Assembly: GCF_000195755.1 (NCBI RefSeq)
Contig: NC_002937.3
Span: 1,500,001 to 1,532,000 of the forward strand
Source of the DNA: Nitratidesulfovibrio vulgaris str. Hildenborough
GTDB lineage: Bacteria; Desulfobacterota; Desulfovibrionia; Desulfovibrionales; Desulfovibrionaceae
Direction: 5' to 3'
Length of the DNA: 32,000 nucleotides
The notes below the pieces were generated by a model. It was not told the origin of the DNA. It saw nothing but the letters and a program-made list of their open reading frames with translations, and did no database searches. The translations under genes were made by a program, and so were the position numbers. Of this stretch, positions 3,457-30,750 are shown one piece after another (the stretch's first letter is position 1; each line of letters opens with the position of its first letter).

Positions 3457-3644
3457 GCGGGGCTCTCTGTTGCGTGGTTTGCAATTTCGATCATTCCGTG
3501 CAGCAGTCTACCCGCCTGTGGTGTGAAGCACAACCCGTGCCGGATTCTTATCATGCCCCGCGGATTGTCGTCACCATCGTAGAAGTTGCGTCCATGACTC
3601 GCTCATGGCGATGCAAGGCGAATTGCAGTGGACGGCATGTGAAA

Positions 3645-3670
3645 GGGGGACGCATCGCGATGCGTCCCCC
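3645..3670 (-). terminator. Hairpin terminator downstream of ychF
   Basis: Perfect palindrome GGGGGACGCAT-cgcg-ATGCGTCCCCC (3645-3670), 65 nt after the ychF stop. On the minus strand it is followed by TTTC, a weak U tract. Confidence 0.6.
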
Positions 3671-3734
3671 CGTTCCTGTCACGTCATGCGATGGCCGACC
3701 TTGAAGGTGTGGCCTCGCGAGAAGCGGATCGAAT

Positions 3735-5248: not shown

Positions 5249-7855
5249 CTACGGGAGCACCTTCACCACGCGTACCTTGTTCATGTCGAGGTAGGTGCGG
5301 GCGACCCGCTCGAGGTCGGAAGGCGCGAGCTTTTCGGCCTTGTCGATGACCTCGCGATTGAACAGTAGCGGATAGCCTTGCGAGGTGAGCATGGCCGCTT
5401 CGGAACTGCGGCTGCCAAGACGCTGATGCTCGCGGTAGTAGTCGCCGCGCATCTGGTTCTTGCCGCGTCGCAGTTCTTCGTCGGGGAGGGCCGTCGCGTG
5501 CAGTTGGTCGATGACCTTGCGGAACCCAGCCTCGGCCTGTTCGAGCTTGCCGGGTTCTGTGCCGATGTACAGCACCATGAAGCCTGCGAGGTCTGACTGC
5601 CAGTTCATGGCAGTCACCGTGTAGCCGAGTCCCTGCTTGTCACGCATGTCACGGAAGAGCAGACCACTCTGTCCTGCCAGCACGGATTGCAGCAGTTCCA
5701 GTGCGGGCGTGTCCTTGTGTGCGAGGCCCACTGTGGGGAAGACCAGCAGCAGGTGCGCCTGATTGCGTTCGGGCAGGCGCAGGTCGAGCGCCTTCTCCGG
5801 CGTCCATGCGGGGGCGTCGAGGCTGACAGGCTTGCCTGAGGGTGCAGGCAGCGACTTTGCGAAGCGCAGAACGGCCTCGCGGTCGAACGAACCTGCCACC
5901 GACATGACCCACGGCTGTGCAGCCTGCCTGGCCCAGAAAGCCTTCACATCGTCACGCGTGAAGCCTTCGACCGTCTCGGGCTGGCCGAGATGATAGAAGC
6001 CGTAGCTGTGGCCGGGGAACAGGAAGGGCGTGAGATGCCTGAACGCAAGTCCCAGCGGCTGGTCTTCACGGGCGCGGATGCTGGCGACCTGATTGCGCTT
6101 CTCGCGGGCCACCTCGTCCGGTGCGAGGGCGGGGGTGGTGAGCACTTCGTGCAGCAGCCCGAACATGTCACCGTCGAAGCGCGAGGGTTCACGCAGGCTC
6201 AGGGTGAATGTGCGCCGACCGGCACTGGCGCCGAGTGACGCGGCGCGGTCGGACTGGAAGGCTTCCAGTGTGGGGGCATCATGCTTGAGCGTGCCCTTGG
6301 TCAGAACCGATGCGGTGAGTGCCGCAAGCCCCTGCCTGTTCTGGTCGAGAAGGGCATTGCCGCCGGAGAAGACCATGTCGAGGGCCGTGTAGGGCAGCGT
6401 GGTGTCGGGAATGAGCACCACCTTGCGTCCGCCGCCGAGGTCGACGGTCTCGGTCTTGCCCACCGCAGCGGCGTTGCCTTCTTCGGCGGCCTTGCCCTTG
6501 GAGGGCCATGTGGACTTGAGCGTGGCGGCAAGGGCAGGGGCCTTCGTGCCTTCCGGCAGCAGCACCGACACGGTCAGGCGCTCGGGGCGCAGCCAGTCCC
6601 TGATGAGGGCCTCGAGTTGCGGGCGTTCGACATCCCGGACGGCTTGCAGGTAGTTGGCCTCGCCCTGTGGCCCGTCGCTGAAGAACTGGAAATAGCCCTC
6701 CTTCGATGCGAGGCCTGCCACTGTCTCCTTGGAGCGGTAGAGTCCGTCCTCGATGTTGAGGCGGGCGCGTTCGAACTCCTGTTCGGTGAAGGCATCGGCC
6801 TTGAGGCCTGCCAGCATGGTCGTGAGTTCCTTCCAGAACGTCTCGACCTTGTCCGCATCCAGTTCAGCGGTGATGTAGAGCATCCCCACCCGCTCGAAAC
6901 TGTAGTTGGCCACGGAGATGTCATCGACAAGCTGCTTCTCGTACTTGAAGGTGCGGTACAGCAGGGCGGTGGGGTCGCCGCCAAGAAGCTGGGAGAGCAT
7001 GTCGAGTTGTGCGGCCTGAAGCGCCTTGAGGCCGGGCACCGGAAGCGCGACGCCGAGGTACACCTTCTTCCACGGGCCGTGTTCCACGTTCACGACGGGC
7101 CCGTGGGCGAATGCGCGGGCGTCGATCGCAGCCGGAGGCGTGATGTTCTGGTCGTTGGTCAGGCCGCCGAAGAGCCGTTCCGCTTCGGCACGCACCTCGG
7201 CGGGGTCGACGTTGCCCACCACTGTCAGCAGCATCGACTGGGGCTGGTAGTGCTTGCGGATGTACGCGCGCATGGTGTCCGCGGTGGTGGCGCGGATGGT
7301 CTCGCGATAGCCGATGATGGGGCGTTCGTAGGTCGTGCCCTTGAGCGTGCCCGCCTGCAACGACTGGAAGATGCGGCTGTCGGGCGAGTCTTCACCGCGT
7401 TGCAGTTCGGCGATGACGACATCCTTCTCCGATTCGAGTTCGGCAGGGTCCAAGGCGGGCTCGAATGCCATGTCGCGCAGGACGTCCATGCCCAGCTTCC
7501 ATTGCGTCGAGGGCATGTCCGTGAGGTATACCGTATAGTCGAAGCTGGTGGCGGCGTTGAGATAGCCGCCCACGCTCTCGACATCTCGTGCGACCTGTCC
7601 CTTGGGGCGTTTCACCGTCCCCTTGAAGACCATGTGCTCGAGCAGGTGGCTTATGCCCGCCTCCTCAGGTGTTTCAAAGGCCGAACCGGCGTGGACGTAG
7701 AGGCGAAGCGAGGCGAGGGGGAAACGGTCGTCCTTGAGGACGAGTACAGTCAGGCCGTTGGAAAGCCGCGTTATGTCGGCGGGCTGCGCAGCCTGGACGG
7801 ACGTGGCGAGCATGAATACTCCGATGATGCAGGTGAAGAGAGCGGCTATGCGCAT
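5249..7855 (-). CDS. Secreted M16-family (pitrilysin/insulinase-like) zinc peptidase, double-length (two M16 halves)
   Basis: ORF 5249..7900 trimmed to ATG 7855 (AAGGAG plus 6 nt; ATG 7861 abuts the RBS). Signal peptide MRIAALFTCIIGVFMLATSVQA/AQ. Inverted zincin motif HLLEH followed by FKGT. About 868 aa, consistent with fused active and inactive M16 units. Confidence 0.88.
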   Translation of the reverse strand: MRIAALFTCIIGVFMLATSVQAAQPADITRLSNGLTVLVLKDDRFPLASLRLYVHAGSAFETPEEAGISHLLEHMVFKGTVKRPKGQVARDVESVGGYLNAATSFDYTVYLTDMPSTQWKLGMDVLRDMAFEPALDPAELESEKDVVIAELQRGEDSPDSRIFQSLQAGTLKGTTYERPIIGYRETIRATTADTMRAYIRKHYQPQSMLLTVVGNVDPAEVRAEAERLFGGLTNDQNITPPAAIDARAFAHGPVVNVEHGPWKKVYLGVALPVPGLKALQAAQLDMLSQLLGGDPTALLYRTFKYEKQLVDDISVANYSFERVGMLYITAELDADKVETFWKELTTMLAGLKADAFTEQEFERARLNIEDGLYRSKETVAGLASKEGYFQFFSDGPQGEANYLQAVRDVERPQLEALIRDWLRPERLTVSVLLPEGTKAPALAATLKSTWPSKGKAAEEGNAAAVGKTETVDLGGGRKVVLIPDTTLPYTALDMVFSGGNALLDQNRQGLAALTASVLTKGTLKHDAPTLEAFQSDRAASLGASAGRRTFTLSLREPSRFDGDMFGLLHEVLTTPALAPDEVAREKRNQVASIRAREDQPLGLAFRHLTPFLFPGHSYGFYHLGQPETVEGFTRDDVKAFWARQAAQPWVMSVAGSFDREAVLRFAKSLPAPSGKPVSLDAPAWTPEKALDLRLPERNQAHLLLVFPTVGLAHKDTPALELLQSVLAGQSGLLFRDMRDKQGLGYTVTAMNWQSDLAGFMVLYIGTEPGKLEQAEAGFRKVIDQLHATALPDEELRRGKNQMRGDYYREHQRLGSRSSEAAMLTSQGYPLLFNREVIDKAEKLAPSDLERVARTYLDMNKVRVVKVLP

Positions 7856-7982
7856 GGGCATCTCCTTGTTTGTGGAAGCACGGTCATGCCGGGTGGGCAT
7901 GACATGTCACGACGTTGCAGGCCGTGCGAGGCATCCTGTAACGTTAAGACTCCGGCCCCGCAAGGCAAGGGGCGATGCAGAC

Positions 7983-8020
7983 AAGCGCCTTCATCTCGGC
8001 TATGATGGCCGAAGGCGCTT
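7983..8020 (+). promoter_or_regulatory. Perfect 10-bp inverted repeat (leader hairpin or operator) just upstream of the HPt/STAS gene RBS
   Basis: AAGCGCCTTC (7983-7992) and GAAGGCGCTT (8011-8020) are exact reverse complements separated by an 18-nt loop. The RBS GGGGAGG is at 8034-8040. Confidence 0.4.
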
Positions 8021-8048
8021 CGCGCCGGATTCCGGGGAGGTTGCAGCG

Positions 8049-10244
8049 GTGACGGATCAGGAAAAGCGGACCCAGCTCGAGCGGGAGTTTCTCGGCGAGG
8101 CGTTGCGTGTGCTCGCTGACGCGGGAGTCGACCTGCTCGAACTCGAAGTGGGCGGCGATGGTGTCGAACACGCCGTCCTTGGTCGCCTTTCGCGTATCAC
8201 GCAGACAATGCGCGGCGGTGCGGGGCTTCTGGGGCTCAACGCCATGCACGAGTTGGCCCTCGTGCTTGAAGCCGTGCTCGACCTCGCCCGGCATGAGAAG
8301 CTTCCCCTCGATACCGTGGTCATCACGGCCATCGAGCGGGGGATGGATGCCTTCGCCGCGCGCTTCAAGGGAATGCGCGACAGTCAGGATGCCGGGGGGA
8401 CGGCGGGCCGGGCCGAGGTGACGCAGGCCGTGCAGCTTTTGCAGGGTGTGGTGCGGCAACCAGCGGATGCGCGCTGCATCTCCGAACGGCATGTGGTCAG
8501 GGGGCCGGATGTCGACGCCGTATTCACCATGGGCGGGCACGACCTGCGCCGGGCGTCGCGAGAAGGGTTGCGTTTCTATGTACTCGCCTTCGATGTTGAG
8601 CACGACCTGCGCCAGAAGGACGTCAGCCCGCTGGGGCTTCTCGTGTTCCTGCAGAAGAGCGGCGATGTGGTGGACGCCCGCTTCACCGGCGTACGTGGTG
8701 GAGGCGGGGGGAATGTGGGCGTGCTCTTCTCGTCCATTCTCGACGCAGATTTGCTGGGGGCGGTGTTCCAGATAGACGCCTCCCGCGTCTTTGCCGTGGA
8801 TACGGACGCAGTGGCGAGGGGGGAGGCCGCTTGGCGCGAACGTGACTTGCCAGCACCGGACGCGGGCAAGTCGGCGATGCCGGATGAACCGGACAGCCGA
8901 AGTATCGAACTGTTGCTGCTGCAGTATGACGAGGCCATGAAGCGCCTACGGGAGCAGAGTATGCAGGATGATTTCGAGCCCTACGACATGAACAGCGATA
9001 CGGATGAGAAGCCTGCTTCGCAGAATGCCGGAGGGGAATTCGACGAGGTCGTGGGGATGCCCGATACGTCGTTCGACGGGCAGGAGGCCATGCCTCTATC
9101 CGGCACCCTCTCCGATACGGTGGCAGACCCTGTGTATCAGGCAGCCGGGGCAGAAGCCGAAGAGTACGCTACGGACGCCCCGTCGTCCGGCATGGCTGGT
9201 GATGCCATGCCCCCGCTTGATGCACCGGGTAGTTACGGTTTTTTCGATGACGCTCCCGGTGTGGGCATTCTGACCGATACCCCGCATCCTGTGGCGGATA
9301 CCCTGGAAACCGGAGAGGCCTCAGGCAGTCTGGCGGGGGATGACGCAGTAGACGATGATGCCGCCGCAAGTCTGCTTCTCGACCTCGAAGCCGAGTTCGA
9401 TGCACCGTTACTCGATGAGGCCGATGCCTATGCCGTTGAGCCGCATCGCATCGGGCTGGCGGAGGGGGGTACGCTTGACGGGGCGGCATCGCACCTTTCC
9501 GACGGGCTTTCCATCGCCGATTCCGATCTTGATTTCTTTCGCGACGACGCCCCACCGCCAGACCAGAGTCACCTCGACCTTCCACTTTCGGAACGTGGTG
9601 AGAAGCCGGGCGGTGATGGCATCATGCTCGACCTCGGCTTCGATGATGCTGCCGGGGACGAGGCACCTGCCGTCGATACCTTTCCGGAAGCGCCAGCCAT
9701 GCCAGCTGCTGCAGGCATGGGCCTCGACGCTTCGCTGGTCGACCCTGACGTCATGGCTGCGGTGGGGGCGGCGGGAGGCTTGCCGCCCCATGACGAAGCC
9801 ATTGCGGAGGCTGTCGCCTTCCCGGCAGGCACGCCCTCTGCCACCGCGTCCGTTCCGTCTTCACCTCGCCCGGTATCCGGCACGGGGGTGGCGGCTGAAC
9901 CCACCAGTGGCGGTTTCGATGTGCGTGAATCCGGGGGGAGTGGCATCCTTATCCTGTCGGGCGAGTTGACTATCGAGCGGAGTCTCGCCTTTCGGGATGC
10001 CCTGCTTGAGATGTTCGACCGGTATCAGAATGTGCGCCTCGACCTTTCCGGGGTGACCGAAGTCGACCTCACTTTCTTCCAGCTTCTGCGGGCTGCCGTC
10101 GTGACGGCGCAGCGCAGGGGCGGGACGCTTGCAGGCTGCGGCGTCGTTCCTGCCCCCGTGAGCGAGACGGCCCATAGGGCGGGTCTGGACGCGCAGGCCG
10201 TGAAGCGTGCCGGTTTCGAGGCTGTCCTCGGCGGCATGGCCTGA
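8049..10244 (+). CDS. Multidomain protein: N-terminal HPt-like (CheA-P1-like) domain with Gln at the phospho-His position, long acidic disordered linker, C-terminal STAS domain
   Basis: ORF 7734..10244. The upstream part has poor third-position GC and overlaps the divergent peptidase start, so the start is set at GTG 8049 (RBS GGGGAGG, 8-nt spacer). N-terminus ...FLGEALRVLADAGVDLLELE...LSRITQTMRGGAGLLGLNAMHELALVLE aligns by eye to the CheA P1 / Hpt motif (E. coli CheA IFRAAHSIKGGAG). C-terminus ILILSGELTIERSLAFRDALLEMF...VRLDLSGVTEVDLTFFQLL is STAS-like. The middle ~320 aa are rich in D/E/A/P/G. Confidence 0.7.
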   Translation: MTDQEKRTQLEREFLGEALRVLADAGVDLLELEVGGDGVEHAVLGRLSRITQTMRGGAGLLGLNAMHELALVLEAVLDLARHEKLPLDTVVITAIERGMDAFAARFKGMRDSQDAGGTAGRAEVTQAVQLLQGVVRQPADARCISERHVVRGPDVDAVFTMGGHDLRRASREGLRFYVLAFDVEHDLRQKDVSPLGLLVFLQKSGDVVDARFTGVRGGGGGNVGVLFSSILDADLLGAVFQIDASRVFAVDTDAVARGEAAWRERDLPAPDAGKSAMPDEPDSRSIELLLLQYDEAMKRLREQSMQDDFEPYDMNSDTDEKPASQNAGGEFDEVVGMPDTSFDGQEAMPLSGTLSDTVADPVYQAAGAEAEEYATDAPSSGMAGDAMPPLDAPGSYGFFDDAPGVGILTDTPHPVADTLETGEASGSLAGDDAVDDDAAASLLLDLEAEFDAPLLDEADAYAVEPHRIGLAEGGTLDGAASHLSDGLSIADSDLDFFRDDAPPPDQSHLDLPLSERGEKPGGDGIMLDLGFDDAAGDEAPAVDTFPEAPAMPAAAGMGLDASLVDPDVMAAVGAAGGLPPHDEAIAEAVAFPAGTPSATASVPSSPRPVSGTGVAAEPTSGGFDVRESGGSGILILSGELTIERSLAFRDALLEMFDRYQNVRLDLSGVTEVDLTFFQLLRAAVVTAQRRGGTLAGCGVVPAPVSETAHRAGLDAQAVKRAGFEAVLGGMA

Positions 10245-10470: not shown

Positions 10471-13065
10471 TTAGGCCGGTTCGAAGTGCTGTTCCAGCTT
10501 GGTCATGGCGAGTTCGTTGATGGCGGCCTCGGGGAAGACGGCGCGTGCAAGGGCGAGGGGCGACATGTAGAAGTCCGTCCAGTCCAGACGCAATGTCAAC
10601 GAACCGTCGTCTTCGAACGTGATATCCCTGAACAGCGGGCGGATGTCTCCGGTGCGCTGTCCCTTCTTGGTGTCTCGGGTCCACTCGAAGGCTTCGCATG
10701 CAGCGAAGGTTCGCCATGCGTCGATGAACGTCGGCTGCATCTCTTCGGGGGCCAGATAGCGAAGCGTGAAGACCTCGACCACCGGCTGGGGATGGCGTTT
10801 GCTGGGAAGCTGTTCCTCGACGAAGGTCACGCGCATCCCCTTGGGCAGACGCCCTTCAAGACGCTGCCGCACTTCGTCAGCCGTGAAGCGTTCACGCAGG
10901 ATGATGGTGAACCACTCCGCGCGGCTGGCCACGCCTACGGGCAGCGCGCGGCCGAACGAGAGCAGTGGCAGGGGGTGGAAGCCTTGCGAGAAGGCCGGGG
11001 GAAGTCCCGCACGCCGCAGCGCCCTTTCGAAGATGGTCTGAAGTTCCAGCTGGCTGAGGAACACGGCCATGTCTTCCTTGGTGTACCAGATGCGGTACTG
11101 GGACGCCTTGTGGACAAGGTCTCCTGACAGCTTCGGCGGGCGGTTGGGGGCCTCGTGGCGCACGACCTGTCCGTTATCGTCCAGTGTCGGCTCATGCGAT
11201 TGCTGGTCGCGCTGTTCGAAATTGAGGCGATTGGCGTAGGCCTCCACACCCGGCAGCCTGTCGAGGCGCGAGGGGCCGGCCTTGGTGTCGCAAACCCCGC
11301 ACACGCGGCATCCGGAATAGCGGCAGTCGGGCGTTGTCTTGAGCGACAGGGCGCGTTCACGTTCACGCAGCAGGAATTCGCGCGAGACCCCCGAGTCGAG
11401 ATGAGCCCACGCAAGCGGGGCGTCGATGTCGCGGGCGCAGGTGTATTCGTCAGGTGAAAGACCGTGTTCGTTCATGGCCTCCAGCCACGGGGCAAGGTCG
11501 AAGCCCTCCATCCAGCTGCTGAAGATGGCCCCCTTGCGGAAGGCGCTCTCCACGACGGGGGCGAGTCGCCTGTCGCCGCGTGAGAAGATGCCTTCCAGAA
11601 AGCTCATCTCGGGTTCATGCCAGCGAAGCTTGAGCCCCTTCTCGCGGCGGAAGGCATCGCGCAGGTAGCCGACGCGCGCCCGAATCTCTTCAAGCGAAAT
11701 CTGGGCCTCCCACTGGAAGGGGGTGTGCGGCTTGGGCACGAAGGGCGAGACGGCTGCGGTGACCTGAAGCCTGCGAACACCCCGTCCCGCTGCGTCACGC
11801 ACCTTGCGGCACAGGTCGACGATGGCGTCGAGGTCTTCATAGGTCTCGGTGGGCAGGCCCAGCATGAAGTACAGCTTCACCTGCTGCCAGCCGTGTTCGA
11901 AGAGCTTGCGGACATGCAGCATCAGCCCTTCTTCGGTGACGCCCTTGTTGATGACGTCGCGCAGCCGCTGGCTTCCGGCTTCCGGGGCCAGTGTCGCCCC
12001 CGTACGACGGATGCCCGCCATGCGGCGCATGATGTCGTCGTCGATGGAACCGACGCGCAACGAAGGCAGGGAGACCGAGACCTGCTCCTCTGCGCAGCGG
12101 TCGACGGTCTGCATGAACAGGGTCTTCAGCGCGGAGAAGTCACCGGTGCTGAGGGAGAGGAAGGAGACGTCGTCGTACCCGGTGCGGGCCAGACAGTCTT
12201 CAAGTAACGCTTGAAGGTTCGGGACGCTCCGTTCACGCGCCGGACGGTAGGTCATGCCCGCCTGACAGAAGCGGCAGCCGCGTGTGCAGCCGCGTCCTAT
12301 CTCCAGTGCGAGACGGTTGTGCACGGCCCCGAAGGGGACGAGTTGCGCCGCCGGGTATCTGGCATTGTCCATATCGGCGATGATGCGTCGCACGACCTTG
12401 TCATAGCCCTGTCGCAACGGGGCAGGCGTGGCGCCCTGTGCGTCATCGGCGAAGAAGGCGGGCACGTAGACACCCGGAATGGATGAGGCCGCCTCGAGAT
12501 AGCGTGTGCGAGACCAGCCCTCGCTACGGGCCTTGGCAAGCAGGTCGATGATTTCGACCTGAACCTCTTCGCCTTCACCGAGTACCATGAGGTCGAGAAA
12601 GGGTGCCATGGGTTCGGCAGCGAGGGTGCAGCCGCCGCCCGCCATGATGATGGGCCATGCAGCAAGGTCGTCGCCCCGGTCTGCGCTACGCAACGGAATA
12701 CCCGCAAGGTCGAGCATGTACAGGATGTTGGTGTAGCAAAGCTCGTGCGTGATGCTGAAGCCGACAAGATGCAGGGCCGCAAGCGGTGTATCCGATTCGA
12801 GCGTGGACAGCGGCGCGTTGTGGCTGCGGAGTATGGCGCCAGCTTCGCGGCAGGGGGTGAATACCCGTTCGGCCCAGATGTCCTCGCGGTCGTTGAGAAT
12901 GCCGTAGAGAATCTTCTGGCCGAGGTAGGACATGCCTACTTCATACATGTCGGGGAAGGCGAGCGCACAGTGGATGGCCACATCTTCACGCCGTTTATGG
13001 ACCGAGCCCTCTTCGATGCCGGTATAACGGCTGGGCTTCGGCAGCAGGGAAAGCAGTTCGCGCAT
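10471..13065 (-). CDS. Large fused radical-SAM protein (TIGR03960-type radical SAM domain plus TIGR03936/DUF2344-type 'radical SAM-linked' C-terminal domain), function unknown
   Basis: GRGCTRGCRFCQAG is a CxxxCxxC 4Fe-4S/SAM motif. About 864 aa. N-terminus MRELLSLLPKPSRYTGIEEGS. The track start at 13095 is GTG, and ATG 13065 is preferred. The C-terminal ~230 aa (YRIWYTKEDMAVFLSQLELQTIFERALRRAGLP...) look like the DUF2344 family. Confidence 0.85.
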   Translation of the reverse strand: MRELLSLLPKPSRYTGIEEGSVHKRREDVAIHCALAFPDMYEVGMSYLGQKILYGILNDREDIWAERVFTPCREAGAILRSHNAPLSTLESDTPLAALHLVGFSITHELCYTNILYMLDLAGIPLRSADRGDDLAAWPIIMAGGGCTLAAEPMAPFLDLMVLGEGEEVQVEIIDLLAKARSEGWSRTRYLEAASSIPGVYVPAFFADDAQGATPAPLRQGYDKVVRRIIADMDNARYPAAQLVPFGAVHNRLALEIGRGCTRGCRFCQAGMTYRPARERSVPNLQALLEDCLARTGYDDVSFLSLSTGDFSALKTLFMQTVDRCAEEQVSVSLPSLRVGSIDDDIMRRMAGIRRTGATLAPEAGSQRLRDVINKGVTEEGLMLHVRKLFEHGWQQVKLYFMLGLPTETYEDLDAIVDLCRKVRDAAGRGVRRLQVTAAVSPFVPKPHTPFQWEAQISLEEIRARVGYLRDAFRREKGLKLRWHEPEMSFLEGIFSRGDRRLAPVVESAFRKGAIFSSWMEGFDLAPWLEAMNEHGLSPDEYTCARDIDAPLAWAHLDSGVSREFLLRERERALSLKTTPDCRYSGCRVCGVCDTKAGPSRLDRLPGVEAYANRLNFEQRDQQSHEPTLDDNGQVVRHEAPNRPPKLSGDLVHKASQYRIWYTKEDMAVFLSQLELQTIFERALRRAGLPPAFSQGFHPLPLLSFGRALPVGVASRAEWFTIILRERFTADEVRQRLEGRLPKGMRVTFVEEQLPSKRHPQPVVEVFTLRYLAPEEMQPTFIDAWRTFAACEAFEWTRDTKKGQRTGDIRPLFRDITFEDDGSLTLRLDWTDFYMSPLALARAVFPEAAINELAMTKLEQHFEPA

Positions 13066-13095
13066 GTCCGTCCTGCAAGTGGTTGCGGTGGGCAC

Positions 13096-13300: not shown

Positions 13301-13666
13301 CTACTTCTTCAGCAGGCTCGAAAGGTCGCTGACCTTGCCGCCCATGCCGGGTTTTCCGAGGCCGAGTCCACCAACGCCACCGAGTCCGCCCGTGGAAAGC
13401 GTGAGGTTCGAGCAGGCTTCCATGTACTTGGTCTTGAGGTCGTCGGGAAAGCTCTTGTATTCGTATATGACGTGCTTGCGTTCGATGACGCCGTCAAAAC
13501 CCTGTTCGAAGGGGTAACCGTAAGGCATCAGCATCATTTGCACGCCCTGCTGGGTGGGAATGGTCTGAAGCGCGGCGACATCCTTGTAGGCGTCAGCTTC
13601 TGCGTCGAACTTGCCGATGACGAGTTCGCCGTTGACCAGTTTCACAAGGCGGATATCGTAGGCCAT
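13301..13666 (-). CDS. Small hypothetical protein (121 aa): globular N-terminal part plus Gly-rich C-terminal tail
   Basis: ORF 13301..13699 trimmed to ATG 13666 (AAGGAG RBS 8 nt upstream). Good third-position GC. MAYDIRLVKLVNGELVIGKFD...STGGLGGVGGLGLGKPGMGGKVSDLSSLLKK. I recognise no family. Confidence 0.6.
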   Translation of the reverse strand: MAYDIRLVKLVNGELVIGKFDAEADAYKDVAALQTIPTQQGVQMMLMPYGYPFEQGFDGVIERKHVIYEYKSFPDDLKTKYMEACSNLTLSTGGLGGVGGLGLGKPGMGGKVSDLSSLLKK

Positions 13667-13728
13667 TCGGGATGCTCCTTGGGTTAAGCGTTCCGGCATA
13701 GGTAGGGGTTACGCATGGGGCTGTCAAG

Positions 13729-24124: not shown

Positions 24125-28367
<4,243 letters not shown>

Positions 28368-28387
28368 CCCTCGAACTCCTCGTGTGG

Positions 28388-28732
28388 CTAGTCGGGCAGC
28401 AGTGTGAGCAGGTCATCCTCGTCTTCGAGCAGGGGGAAAAGGCCGGAAAGCTGGGCGGCGTCGAGAAGTTTGTGAACCTCCTTCGAGGGACGGTACAGCA
28501 GAATGCGACAGCCGGAAGCGCGGGCGCGGGTACTTACGGCGATAAGGCTTCCAAGCCCGGAACTGTCGAGATAGGTGACGCCTGCAAGGTCGAGGGCCAC
28601 ATCGGTGACCCCTTGCGTCGACAGTGCCTCTTCAAGCTCACCGCGCAGGTGCTGCGCATTGGCGAGTGTCAACTCGCCGGAAAGGACGGCTACGATGACG
28701 TTGCCGTGGTGTTGCAGGTCGATGGCTGCCAT
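28388..28732 (-). CDS. STAS-domain anti-sigma-factor antagonist (RsbV/SpoIIAA-like)
   Basis: 114 aa. VAVLSGELTLANAQHLRGELEEAL...VALDLAGVTYLDSSGLGSLIAV carries the canonical phosphorylatable Ser (DSSGLG). Confidence 0.9.
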   Translation of the reverse strand: MAAIDLQHHGNVIVAVLSGELTLANAQHLRGELEEALSTQGVTDVALDLAGVTYLDSSGLGSLIAVSTRARASGCRILLYRPSKEVHKLLDAAQLSGLFPLLEDEDDLLTLLPD

Positions 28733-29133
28733 GCTGCCTCCGGGATATGTATCGTTGCGCGCAGTACTGTCTTGCCGTCACGACGTTCAAGTACGCAGTC
28801 TTCTGAAAGTTTCCCGATGATCCTGAGCCCGTGGCCCGATTCGCCGAAATGCGGAGGCTGCTTGCCGCCCACAGGGCCGACGCCCCAGTCCGTGACATGA
28901 ATGGTCACGGATGTACGAGGTTGAACATCTACTTCAACGAGCATATCACCTTCGGCCCCGCCGGGATAGGCGTGGCGGATGACGTTCGCACAGGCCTCTC
29001 CAAGAATGATCTCCAGAGTCTTGAGCGTGTCGCAATCGCACAACCATGGCGAAAGTACCTCGAGCACCTGACATACGAGGGGGCGATAGCTTTCCAGCGT
29101 GGCGGGGGCTTTGAACGCGCAGACCCTCATCAT
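28690..29133 (-). CDS. RsbW/SpoIIAB-like anti-sigma factor serine kinase (HATPase_c_2)
   Basis: 147 aa. N-box LGEACANVIRHAY and G-box GESGHGLRIIGKL. AAGGAGGAG RBS. The 3' end overlaps the STAS gene by 43 nt in another frame. The start overlaps the stop of the phosphatase gene (ATGATGA). Confidence 0.85.
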   Translation of the reverse strand: MMRVCAFKAPATLESYRPLVCQVLEVLSPWLCDCDTLKTLEIILGEACANVIRHAYPGGAEGDMLVEVDVQPRTSVTIHVTDWGVGPVGGKQPPHFGESGHGLRIIGKLSEDCVLERRDGKTVLRATIHIPEAAWQPSTCNTTATSS

Positions 29134-30299
29134 GCCTCCTCCTTGCGTTCGATATAGAGGGCGGTGACGTCATCGGGCCATGTCGGGGGTTCGCCAAAGG
29201 TGGTGGAGATGTCCTCGCGTAACGATGAAAGCACATCACCGCCACGCCGCATCGTGGCTTCTGCCAGCGACAGGAAGCGGTCGATGCCAAGTCGGCGTCC
29301 ACTCGCGGTGGCGCAATCGTGAAAACCGTCGGTATACAGCAACAGGCGTGTACCCGGTGTGAAGGGCACAAGCCGTTCCGTTTCCCGCACGCCGAAGAAA
29401 CCGAGCCGCGGAGTCGTTCCGGAAAGCCGCATGGTCGTCCCGTCAGGGTGGCGAAGAAGGGCGGGGCAGTGTCCGGCGTTGACGTACCGGAGTGTGTTGC
29501 CCCTGAGGTCGAGGTCAGCTGCGAAGAGCGTGACGAAGTCCGGCTCGTTGCCGACCACATCCAGCAGGTTGGTGTTGATCTCGAGCAGCATGTCCGTGAG
29601 CGGCGTATTCGCGGCATGGCTGGCGTGGAACAGCGTGCGCACCATGGTCATGAGAACGGCGGAACGGGCGCCATGCCCGGAGGCGTCGGCGATGACGACC
29701 CGTAGTCTGTCTTCTCCGGGCAACAGGAAATGGTCGAAGTAGTCGCCGCTGGCTTCTGTGGAGGGCTGGTAGAAACTGTCGATGCGCAGCGACGCAAGGT
29801 AGGGTGTGTAGGCTGGCAGCAGCCTCATCTGCAGGTCTGCCACGAGCCGCATCTCCTCTTCGATGCGGCGTGTGTAGGCCCGAAGGCGTCGTGAAAGACG
29901 CGCCTGCCGCAAGGCGACGGCGACACGGGCGGTCAGTTCCGCCTGGTCCACAGGAAGCCGGAGAAAGTCGTCTGCGCCGGCACGGCTTGCCTCCAGACGT
30001 TCCAGCACAGCGGCTTCGTCGCTCAGCACGAGGATGAACGTATCGTCAAGATGCGGTTCGGAACGGAAGGCCCGAAGCAGGGCAAGGGCTTCGCCGTCGG
30101 TGGACGAGGCATCGAGCAGGATGAGAGCGGGGCGGAAGGAGAGGGCCAACTCCATACCGACGTCGTGACTGTCGGCGATGAGCAGGCGACGCGTTTCGGA
30201 GATGTGCGTCACCAGCGCATCACGCACCAGTGCCGAGTCGGTGATGATCAGGAGCGGGCTTTCATCCTGCAACGCTGGCCTCCGGGAAGAGTTCGGCAT
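29130..30299 (-). CDS. Response-regulator receiver (atypical) fused to PP2C/SpoIIE-type serine phosphatase (RsbU-like)
   Basis: Receiver-like N-terminus (LLIITDSALV...ALILLDASSTDGEAL...ILVLSDEA...DFLRLP). The C-terminal half has SGDYFDHF...VVIADASGHGARSAVLM...YVNAGHCPALL...LLLYTDG (SpoIIE/PP2C). Start is uncertain: ATG 30299 has no RBS, TTG 30305 is the track start, and TTG 30272 has GGAGG 6 nt upstream and is a good alternative. Confidence 0.85.
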   Translation of the reverse strand: MPNSSRRPALQDESPLLIITDSALVRDALVTHISETRRLLIADSHDVGMELALSFRPALILLDASSTDGEALALLRAFRSEPHLDDTFILVLSDEAAVLERLEASRAGADDFLRLPVDQAELTARVAVALRQARLSRRLRAYTRRIEEEMRLVADLQMRLLPAYTPYLASLRIDSFYQPSTEASGDYFDHFLLPGEDRLRVVIADASGHGARSAVLMTMVRTLFHASHAANTPLTDMLLEINTNLLDVVGNEPDFVTLFAADLDLRGNTLRYVNAGHCPALLRHPDGTTMRLSGTTPRLGFFGVRETERLVPFTPGTRLLLYTDGFHDCATASGRRLGIDRFLSLAEATMRRGGDVLSSLREDISTTFGEPPTWPDDVTALYIERKEEA

Positions 30300-30750
30300 C
30301 GTCAAGGCAAAGGGTCACAGGGCCCCAGTTGATGAGGCTCACATGCATCAAGGCCCCGAAGATGCCTGAAGATACCCGTCCGGGCAGCCTCGCGTCAATG
30401 TCGTGGACGAGTCGTTCGTAGAGATTCCGGGCCGTGTCCGGAGGGGCCGCTGTCTGGAATGATGGGCGGCGGCCCCGGCGCAGGTCGGCATAGAGCGTGA
30501 ACTGCGAGACAAGCAGCACCTCTCCGCCGTGTTCGCGCAGACTGCGGTTCATGCGCCCCTCTGCATCGGGGAAGATGCGCAGGTCGATGAGCTTGTCGCA
30601 CATGGCGTTCCAGCGGCGGCTGTCTGGCAGGGTCTCGTCGTCGTCCTTGCCGAACCCGGCGAGGACCAGCAGCCCTGTTCCGATGGTGGCTACCGGGGTG
30701 TCGTCCACCCGCACCCCGGCCTCCAGAACGCGCTGGACGACAAGCCTCAC
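30262..30750 (-). CDS. dtd: D-aminoacyl-tRNA deacylase
   Basis: ORF 30262..30810 trimmed to GTG 30750 (GGGAGG RBS, 9-nt spacer), giving (V/M)RLVVQRV... Motifs SQFTLYAD and WGPVTL are typical of Dtd. The upstream stop is at 30755. Confidence 0.88.
   Translation of the reverse strand: MRLVVQRVLEAGVRVDDTPVATIGTGLLVLAGFGKDDDETLPDSRRWNAMCDKLIDLRIFPDAEGRMNRSLREHGGEVLLVSQFTLYADLRRGRRPSFQTAAPPDTARNLYERLVHDIDARLPGRVSSGIFGALMHVSLINWGPVTLCLDDAELFPEASVAG

Follow-up and report, generated by a model that had tools for sequence, protein, structure and literature searches.

Phosphotransfer cascades that run from a histidine phosphotransfer (Hpt) protein through a REC-PP2C phosphatase to a STAS protein are known, the HptB-HsbR-HsbA pathway being one example. 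R. sphaeroides CheA3, made up of a P1 domain, a long linker, and a P5 domain, receives its phosphate in trans from CheA4; plant pseudo-HPt proteins, AHP6 among them, are competitive inhibitors; and CheA H48Q is the classical non-phosphorylatable laboratory mutant. Che clusters that carry genes for a STAS/anti-sigma antagonist and a serine phosphatase are also on record, for example F7 stage-1 (PMC7184735). Here we analyze a 32,000-nucleotide stretch of the Nitratidesulfovibrio vulgaris (D. vulgaris) Hildenborough genome (contig NC_002937.3, positions 1,500,001 to 1,532,000, forward strand; hereafter the window) and a gene within it, called X, whose 731-residue product joins a CheA-type P1 domain and a domain in the CheA P2 position (MID) to a C-terminal STAS domain by way of a long acidic linker. 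We favor, at a probability of roughly 0.55, the reading that X is a binding-only adaptor or competitor in which the P1 and P2-position domains of CheA are fused to a serine-less STAS_2 domain, and which would act independently of phosphorylation. Our confidence in any specific partner is much lower. The parts of X, in window coordinates, are:

8034-8040, plus strand: Shine-Dalgarno-like GGGGAGG, 8 nt 5' of the GTG start
8049-10244, plus strand: coding sequence of X (731-residue P1-MID-linker-STAS protein), 100% identical to AAS95909.1, WP_010938724.1, and UniProt Q72C53
8055-8450, plus strand: CheA-type P1/Hpt helical bundle, residues 3-134, five helices in the model
8202-8204, plus strand: codon CAG, Gln52 at the CheA His48 column, a single base from a His codon
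8487-8819, plus strand: conserved alpha/beta MID domain, residues 147-257, at the P2 position in 56 CheA representatives and without a Pfam model
8895-8960, plus strand: conserved helix after MID, residues 283-304, LLLLQYDEAMKRLREQS
8961-9899, plus strand: acidic linker, predicted disordered, residues 305-617, the fastest-evolving part of X
9354-9434, plus strand: conserved acidic amphipathic helix within the linker, residues 436-462, SLLLDLEAEFDAPLLDEA, resembling the 283-304 helix motif
9525-9584, plus strand: conserved short linker motif DLDFFRDDAPPPDQSHLDLP, residues 493-512
9900-10241, plus strand: C-terminal STAS_2 domain, residues 618-731
10068-10070, plus strand: codon CTC, Leu674 at the column of SpoIIAA Ser58 and RsbV Ser56

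The N-terminal part of X is a P1 domain that lacks the phospho-accepting histidine. The Pfam Hpt model (PF01627) aligns with residues 13-103 at E 1.8e-4 and 22.1 bits, slightly below its gathering score of 24.6, which the His-bearing relative P0010 clears with 36.6 bits. The NCBIfam CheA N-terminus model matches at E 2.7e-5, phmmer aligns X with CheA P1 chains of the PDB (8c5v_C, 2.5e-5; 1i5n, 1.1e-4; 1tqg, 1.6e-4), and a profile of the family reaches CheAs at E<=1e-30. In an AlphaFold2 (AF2) model built from a six-sequence alignment, residues 3-134 form helices that Foldseek superimposes on the P1 structures 1i5n, 8c5v, and 3kyi with target-normalised template-modelling (TM) scores of 0.76-0.79, and one match covers the E. 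coli P1-P2 construct 2lp4; on this evidence X has the four-helix-bundle fold of an Hpt domain. The phmmer alignments place Q52 on CheA His48, R55 on Lys51, and E74 on Glu70, with the Glu retained, and the signature around the phosphorylation site reads lsritQtmRGGAG in X versus fraaHsiKGGAG in CheA. An earlier annotation made from the letters of this DNA alone, which we call the sequence-only reading, had described an Hpt/CheA P1 domain with Gln for His and Arg for Lys; Pfam, NCBIfam, phmmer, and the AF2/Foldseek comparison all bear this out, and the alignment check that it proposed found Gln52, and no His, in the acceptor column. Pfam and NCBIfam scans of X detected no P3 dimerisation, P4 HATPase, or P5 CheW-like domain and no match to the CheA core, so X is not a CheA kinase.

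At the other end, residues 636-714 match Pfam STAS_2 (PF13466) at E 1.1e-12 and 48.4 bits (gathering score 29.2), and STAS (PF01740) matches at E 2.2e-7. Foldseek with the STAS part of the AF2 model returned SpoIIAA, RsbV, RsbS, and TM1442, with target-normalised TM scores of 0.64-0.79 to SpoIIAA, RsbV, and TM1442. Using a profile of 28 family STAS domains against PDB chains, we obtained RsbV at E 3.3e-8 and SpoIIAA at E 1.6e-7, the range for these two and TM1442 being 3e-8 to 1e-5. The profile alignment lays D673-L674-T675 of X over D-S56-T of RsbV and D-S58-S of SpoIIAA, so that Leu674 stands where an anti-sigma-factor antagonist has its phosphorylatable Ser or Thr. Across the family this column holds L, V, or I in 44 of 52 domains and S in only 2, and most domains have Thr or Ser directly after the hydrophobic residue (D-[LVI]-[TS]). 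The hydrophobic residue is thus the family-wide state and not a sign of decay in X. The sequence-only reading had correctly placed Leu on the Ser58 column; its wording of a Ser-to-Leu replacement does not hold as a loss in X. Its broader claim, that X cannot be phosphorylated at either end, is supported for the canonical His and the canonical Ser.

Two alternatives bear directly on these domains. X could still be a phosphotransfer protein that uses another acceptor, either a different His in P1 or Thr675 beside the canonical STAS position; the D-[LVI]-[TS] pattern and the Thr that RsbV also has at this place would fit such a role. We consider it very improbable, because the orthologue alignment holds no alternative P1 His that is invariant in the His-less clades described below, the canonical Ser column is hydrophobic throughout the family, and the same substitution in CheA, H48Q, abolishes phosphorylation. 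Alternatively, X could be an RsbR-like co-antagonist or a polar hub whose STAS core oligomerises in a stressosome-like or HubP/FimV-like manner and displays an N-terminal helical "sensor" module and the acidic disordered region. The layout of an N-terminal module before a C-terminal STAS domain does mimic RsbR, Foldseek returns RsbS and stressosome chains, and polar landmark proteins typically contain long acidic linkers. The STAS profile, however, finds RsbV, SpoIIAA, and TM1442 and neither RsbS nor RsbR at E<=1, which disfavors the stressosome version, and no RsbS- or RsbT-like genes are adjacent to X. We regard this second alternative as improbable.

Between P1 and the linker lies MID, which the model folds with a predicted local distance difference test (pLDDT) value of about 80 (79.5 when modeled separately). 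A hidden Markov model (HMM) of MID matches the P2 position of 56 CheA representatives, with a best E of 1e-17 and a median of 7e-10. The sequence-only reading had noted that the segment after P1 resembles the post-P1 region of CheA proteins and had rated the resemblance as weaker; the resemblance is real, but that rating undersold a conserved, folded domain. Its fold relationships are less clear. A Pfam scan of MID in 41 members returned no family, a PDB profile search with MID gave nothing below E 0.2, and Foldseek with the separate model reached a best E of 0.56, with only weak ferredoxin-like, RRM, and ACT-type matches. The MID HMM gives no match to the CheAs encoded beside X in related genomes, so MID derives from a different CheA class. 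An hhalign comparison of MID with the P2-position region of those X-adjacent CheAs gave a probability of 3.9%, which is not significant, and that region is itself without a meaningful PDB match.

MID-bearing CheAs occur in recognizable settings. P0080 lies in a classical chemotaxis cluster with CheX, CheY, STAS, CheA, CheW, MCP, CheB, and CheR, and P0044 exemplifies a P1-MID-CheA core protein with a C-terminal receiver. At L061:1666-5226, in a cluster of this composition, a stand-alone STAS gene directly precedes the MID-bearing CheA gene, and its product has Thr at the phospho-site (EMDTPGL). In locus L062, a gene for a family-type STAS protein (P0110) is directly followed by a gene that opens with an Hpt domain. 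The MID-bearing CheA class seems to have a recurrent association with STAS proteins.

To define the family, an exhaustive profile search of 1.84 billion representatives was used, which returned 562 proteins at E<=1e-10, of which 47 reached E<=1e-30. The best 150 profile matches, together with earlier matches, were dissected with per-domain HMMs. This set contained 50 P1-MID-STAS proteins of 350-790 residues, 56 proteins with P1-MID and a CheA kinase core (typically about 1000 residues, with a C-terminal receiver), 36 with P1-MID only, many of them probably fragments, and 11 with P1 and a kinase core. Other routes recovered far less: a word-indexed protein search with X returned only six close clusters, the same type of search with the N-terminal alignment found two CheAs only and missed the P1-MID-STAS family, an alignment-based search of genome contigs for X-like loci confirmed no relative, and a degenerate DNA pattern run over genome contigs picked out 47 stretches, two of which (L036 and L047) were true loci. 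Ten of the 50 P1-MID-STAS representatives carry an organism name, and all are from Desulfovibrionales: Nitratidesulfovibrio (N. vulgaris and strain SRB-5), "Desulfovibrio desulfuricans", a Desulfovibrio metagenome-assembled genome (MAG), Oleidesulfovibrio, Halodesulfovibrio, Desulfovibrio mangrovi, Desulfohalovibrio reitneri, Megalodesulfovibrio paquesii, and Oceanidesulfovibrio indonesiensis.

The sequence-only reading knew of no characterized protein with this architecture. The architecture is not unique, given the 50 representatives, and the bare combination of Hpt and STAS is not new, having long been visible in database annotation: X is entered in UniProt as "Hpt domain protein/STAS domain protein" and in NCBI as "STAS domain-containing protein", and the Hpt/STAS annotation dates back to 2004-era records. 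Literature searches combining Hpt with STAS or chemosensory with partner-switch terms, or using the locus tags DVU1430-1435, found no description of a P1-P2-STAS fusion, its operon, or the X gene, so the family does appear to be uncharacterized. New here are the placement of MID at the P2 position of CheA, the description of the family together with its operon, the finding that only the loss of the His is derived and that it recurs, and the reconstructed history of the locus. Database entries for several family members carry kinase names ("histidine kinase", "putative CheA signal transduction histidine kinase", or "chemotaxis family sensor kinase CheA"), although these proteins have no dimerisation, ATPase, or CheW-like domain. 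These kinase names are misannotations propagated from the P1 match.

Retention of the phospho-accepting His differs between the architectures. It is present in 65 of 67 kinase-bearing proteins and in 36 of 50 P1-MID-STAS proteins, and among the latter in 29 of 33 with a short linker and 7 of 17 with a long one. The long-linker His-bearers are the Oleidesulfovibrio protein (RSAHALKCAAG), UniRef B8DPA7, P0010, P0011, P0012, P0014, and P0017; B8DPA7 represents a second N. vulgaris-labelled lineage, which we take to be strain Miyazaki F. Gln occupies the His column in the Hildenborough clade (X of the window, P0002, P0003, P0004, and P0015), and Thr occupies it in the clade of D. mangrovi, P0005, and P0006, whose sequences are close to the Halodesulfovibrio MAG protein of L047. 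The survey that the sequence-only reading had proposed across Desulfovibrionales thus placed the family in ten named members, with Gln in the Hildenborough clade and Thr in the D. mangrovi clade among the long-linker proteins. In a neighbour-joining tree computed on the three folded domains, which carries no support values, the long-linker clade is monophyletic, the Gln clade is sister to the His-bearing B8DPA7 protein, and the Thr clade is nested among His-bearers. This topology indicates that the His was lost at least twice independently, once to Gln and once to Thr. Of the two departures from a phosphorylatable protein, only the loss of the His is lineage-specific, and it is recurrent. A second, more degenerate P1-MID-STAS form was also observed in P0038 and P0039 (Halodesulfovibrio marinisediminis WP_074215293.1 and a relative), which have Pro on the His column, no trace of the surrounding signature, no Pfam match, and a hypothetical-protein annotation.

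Loss of the His has not been followed by decay of the domain. X and P0003 are 73% identical in P1, 80% in MID, and 70% in STAS, versus 35-46% in linker segments; for P0004 the corresponding values are 46, 50, and 43%, versus 20-30% in the linker. The His-less P1 is therefore as conserved as the other folded domains. These observations bear on the possibility that X is a non-functional relic of a dismantled operon, drifting toward a pseudogene. Such a relic would be expected to have lost its operon partners and catalytic His and could carry a long, fast-evolving, low-complexity insert, as X does. Nevertheless, the open reading frame (ORF) is intact, with 1-6 substitutions, in all members read of the 41-member cluster of X at 90% identity, and it remains intact in orthologues down to about 25-30% identity. 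The folded domains, including the His-less P1, are also far more conserved than the linker, and the linker itself has kept three motifs. A relic is, in our judgment, highly improbable.

The linker confirms, at about 310 residues, the acidic connection that the sequence-only reading had put at about 320. Residues 313-617 contain 64 Asp and Glu versus 6 Lys and Arg, for a net charge of about -58, and the AF2 model leaves some 310 residues disordered apart from a single weak helix at 436-462. The three motifs at residues 283-304, 436-462, and 493-512 are conserved across the long-linker clade. The helix after MID (LLLLQYDEAMKRLRE) and the linker helix (LLLDLEAEFDAPLLDE) have a common L..L..(E/Y)(F/D).A(M/L) pattern, which is also present in the Thr clade (LDELMEEFDRAMAEM, LAALEAEFEAALLEE) and in the short-linker protein P0018 (MEREFDAALERLE). 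This shared pattern may reflect the internal duplication of a single docking helix.

The chromosomal site of X preserves a record of its former partners. Two genes anchor the comparison:

5249-7900, minus strand: M16 peptidase gene, left synteny anchor, 49% identical to the O. indonesiensis copy
10471-13095, minus strand: radical-SAM gene (Radical_SAM_N2/DUF2344), right synteny anchor, 50-55% identical to the L057, L063, and L064 copies

In O. indonesiensis (L064), the order is M16 (minus strand), REC-PP2C, a fusion of an RsbW-like kinase to a Ser-bearing STAS domain, X (416 residues, with His), and radical SAM (minus strand), a three-gene form of the operon without CheA. In M. paquesii (L063), REC-PP2C and kinase-STAS genes precede X (420 residues, with His), followed by CheA, a GAF-PP2C gene (minus strand), and radical SAM (minus strand). 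A MAG (L057) has RsbW, STAS, X (413 residues, with His), CheA, and radical SAM (minus strand). Since the flanking M16 and radical-SAM genes of the operon loci are 49-55% identical to those of the window, these loci represent the same chromosomal site. The four-gene set of REC-PP2C, RsbW-STAS, X, and CheA also occurs at another genomic site in D. reitneri (L059) and in L053. In every long-linker species examined, X stands alone between the same flanks: in Hildenborough and at the loci of P0004 (L001), B8DPA7 (L060), Oleidesulfovibrio (L036), P0006 (L003), and P0010 (L056); in L047 only the radical-SAM side is visible, as the contig begins just upstream of X. Overall, neighbours encoding a PP2C phosphatase, a GHKL kinase, or a phosphorylatable STAS protein accompany X in L053, L057, L059, L063, and L064 and are not found at the window locus.

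Comparison of these gene orders and sequences gives a history in three stages. X was at first an operon-embedded, His-bearing, short-linker protein; the partner genes were then lost from the site and an acidic linker of about 230-400 residues was gained between MID and STAS; and the His was lost last, in two sublineages. Related bacteria still have this small signalling operon intact, and in the window X is all that survives of it. The kinase-STAS fusion of that operon joins an RsbW-like Ser kinase to its presumptive substrate, a STAS domain with MDSIGIG or VDSIGIG (L064:8208-8936, L063:8187-8972, L059:7254-7997, and L053:930-1610), and in L057 the two halves are separate genes. The fusion is rare: a word-indexed search of 5.8 billion proteins found only 14 clusters (90% identity) with this architecture, none of which has an N. 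vulgaris name or a large membership.

A partner switch is nevertheless encoded 18 kb downstream of X. On the minus strand at 27231-30305, beside flagellar hook and filament genes, are genes for FapA, a canonical STAS protein (YLDSSGLG), an RsbW-like kinase, and a REC-PP2C protein, and from its motifs the set looks like a complete, phosphorylatable switch. Two of its genes can be compared with the operon types:

28690-29133, minus strand: RsbW-like kinase of the window switch
29130-30305, minus strand: REC-PP2C of the window switch

Operon-type REC-PP2Cs share about 52% identity among themselves but only 25-27% with the window REC-PP2C, which matches an unrelated GAF-PP2C at least as well (28%). 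The window RsbW-like kinase barely matches the operon-type kinases. On these identities, the idea that the switch is the relocated ancestral module of X is rejected; it is a paralogue and not a displaced ancestral partner. The sequence-only reading had taken the fusion of Hpt-like and STAS modules near this switch as a Rosetta-stone hint. The general link between Hpt and a STAS partner switch is strongly backed by the operons that join REC-PP2C, an RsbW-like kinase (with or without STAS), X, and CheA, but the particular switch that it pointed to (28388-30305) is only a paralogue at about 26% identity.

X may still work with this paralogous switch to tune flagellar gene expression, its STAS domain binding the RsbW-like kinase as a non-consumable antagonist and P1 or MID binding the REC-PP2C protein. 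The components are encoded beside flagellar genes, ancestors of X shared operons with these three protein types, and a paralogous switch would be the obvious replacement for a cognate one, had that been lost. The low identities given above count against this idea, as does the 18-kb spacing, which belongs to a region-wide synteny shared by relatives and does not indicate a specific linkage. We consider a role in the flagellar switch unlikely.

Collectively, X has no His, no Ser, and no operon partners, yet its folded domains and linker motifs are constrained, and it most likely acts by binding alone. The scaffold, decoy, or binding-partner role proposed in the sequence-only reading is thus the natural one, given the missing canonical His and Ser and purifying selection. 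The ancestral form of X would most plausibly have formed a bridge from Che-type His-Asp phosphotransfer to Ser/Thr partner switching: a CheA core would phosphorylate P1 in trans, a receiver domain, for example that of the REC-PP2C protein, would dock on MID, and the Ser-less STAS domain would dock on the GHKL kinase without being consumed. X of the window would instead serve as a tether, competitor, or sink without phosphorylation. Its Gln-bearing P1 together with MID could form non-productive complexes with a receiver protein or the core of a CheA kinase, while the STAS domain and linker motifs could bind other partners, such as a kinase or a STAS protein.

A more ambitious version of this reading would make the whole P1-MID-STAS family an unrecognized device for coupling chemosensory systems to partner switches, a "split CheA" whose STAS domain docks the P1-P2 arm onto the GHKL (RsbW-like) kinase-STAS protein and the REC-PP2C phosphatase. 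The D. vulgaris form would then have been re-purposed as a phosphorylation-independent hub, with the conserved motifs of its acidic linker recruiting new partners after the operon and the His were lost. We hold this version to be quite unlikely.

Several points weigh against the binding-only adaptor and should temper its interpretation. MID is P2-like by position only, as no significant similarity to the CheY-binding P2 was found by Foldseek, PDB, Pfam, or hhalign searches. The phylogeny behind the repeated His loss is a simple tree without support values. Evidence that Hildenborough is without a cognate kinase is weak, since it comes from one word-indexed search, REC-PP2C was not searched for, and the window covers 32 kb of the genome. 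Finally, our searches found no mention of the gene in the literature and no experimental data on its expression, binding or interaction, phosphorylation, localisation, or phenotype.

The gene itself is monocistronic, divergent from the M16 peptidase gene and convergent with the radical-SAM gene. Its ORF opens mechanically at TTG 7734; the start was taken as GTG 8049, as in the sequence-only reading, and this choice is upheld by the Shine-Dalgarno-like GGGGAGG and by orthologue N-termini that line up from that codon onward. A sigma-54 promoter scan of the interval from 7900 to 8049 gave no match, and promoter scanning upstream of X found one weak sigma-70-like site at 7978-8006. Rfam and tRNA scans across the 32-kb window returned nothing.

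Other features of the region were noted in passing. A 132-residue ORF at 13301-13699 (minus strand) lies between the radical-SAM and MFS genes of the window. The same slot in L001, L003, L056, and L060, compared by position only, holds an unannotated gene of 114-122 residues without a Pfam family, and an unannotated gene of this size also follows the radical-SAM gene in L057, L063, and L064. At the loci of P0006 (L003/L004) and P0010 (L056), the phosphoglucomutase and YchF genes are separated by genes for a large PAS-HisKA-HATPase-REC-Hpt hybrid kinase and for a periplasmic binding protein (L003:1136-4639 and L056:1292-4813). The corresponding gap in the window, at 3457-3734, is only about 280 bp, so both genes are absent there, and the other phosphoglucomutase flank (about 700-1640) contains only ORFs without a Pfam match. 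Between fliK and fapA, at 24125-27234 (minus strand), are two glycosyltransferase-like genes (one GT9 heptosyltransferase-like, one with DUF3880 and Glyco_trans_1_2) that are possible flagellin-glycosylation genes.

These results describe an uncharacterized adaptor family of at least 50 sequence clusters in Desulfovibrionales that fuses the CheA phosphotransfer arm to STAS, identify REC-PP2C, the RsbW-like kinase-STAS fusion, and CheA as its ancestral operon partners, and correct the erroneous database labels "histidine kinase" and "putative CheA" given to its members. Family and operon together offer a concrete, testable link between chemosensory and partner-switch signalling. They also provide a natural series, from the His-bearing operon form through the His-bearing orphan with an acidic linker to the His-less orphan, in which the transition from a phosphotransfer to a pseudo-phosphotransfer protein can be studied. 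As D. vulgaris Hildenborough is genetically tractable, the predictions are directly testable.

Among described proteins, the P1-P2 arm of CheA from E. coli, Salmonella, and T. maritima (1i5n, 8c5v, 1tqg, and 2lp4) resembles X in its P1 bundle, GGAG loop, and Glu70 equivalent and in having a small alpha/beta domain in the P2 position, which X has in common with the 56 CheAs. X differs in lacking P3, P4, and P5, in having Gln for His48, and in a MID without detectable similarity to solved P2 domains. R. sphaeroides CheA3 (3kyi and 3kyj) is likewise kinase-less, with a CheA P1 on a very long linker to a docking domain, and the P1 of X superimposes on 3kyi with a target-normalised TM score of 0.77 in Foldseek; the docking domain of CheA3, however, is a CheW-like P5 and that of X is a STAS domain, and X of the window has no His and thus cannot be phosphorylated in trans. 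MlaB is similar in that its STAS_2-type domain has no phospho-serine and works by binding, and MlaB chains give weak profile and Foldseek matches, but by sequence the STAS domain of X stands closer to RsbV and SpoIIAA, at E 3e-8 to 1e-6, whereas MlaB is reached only at E about 0.5. Arabidopsis AHP6 also has an Hpt fold in which the phospho-His has been replaced and which is retained under selection, whereas it is single-domain, eukaryotic, and of unrelated origin; literature searches found no bacterial equivalent of such a pseudo-HPt protein. The closest parallels in circuitry are HptB-HsbR-HsbA of P. aeruginosa and CrsR-CrsA of Shewanella, which combine an Hpt or CheA input with a REC-PP2C(-kinase) protein and a STAS antagonist, and relatives of X occur in such gene sets. 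There, the Hpt and STAS domains reside on separate polypeptides and the STAS domain can be phosphorylated, whereas in X the two are fused, the STAS domain is Ser-less, and the partner genes have gone from the D. vulgaris locus.

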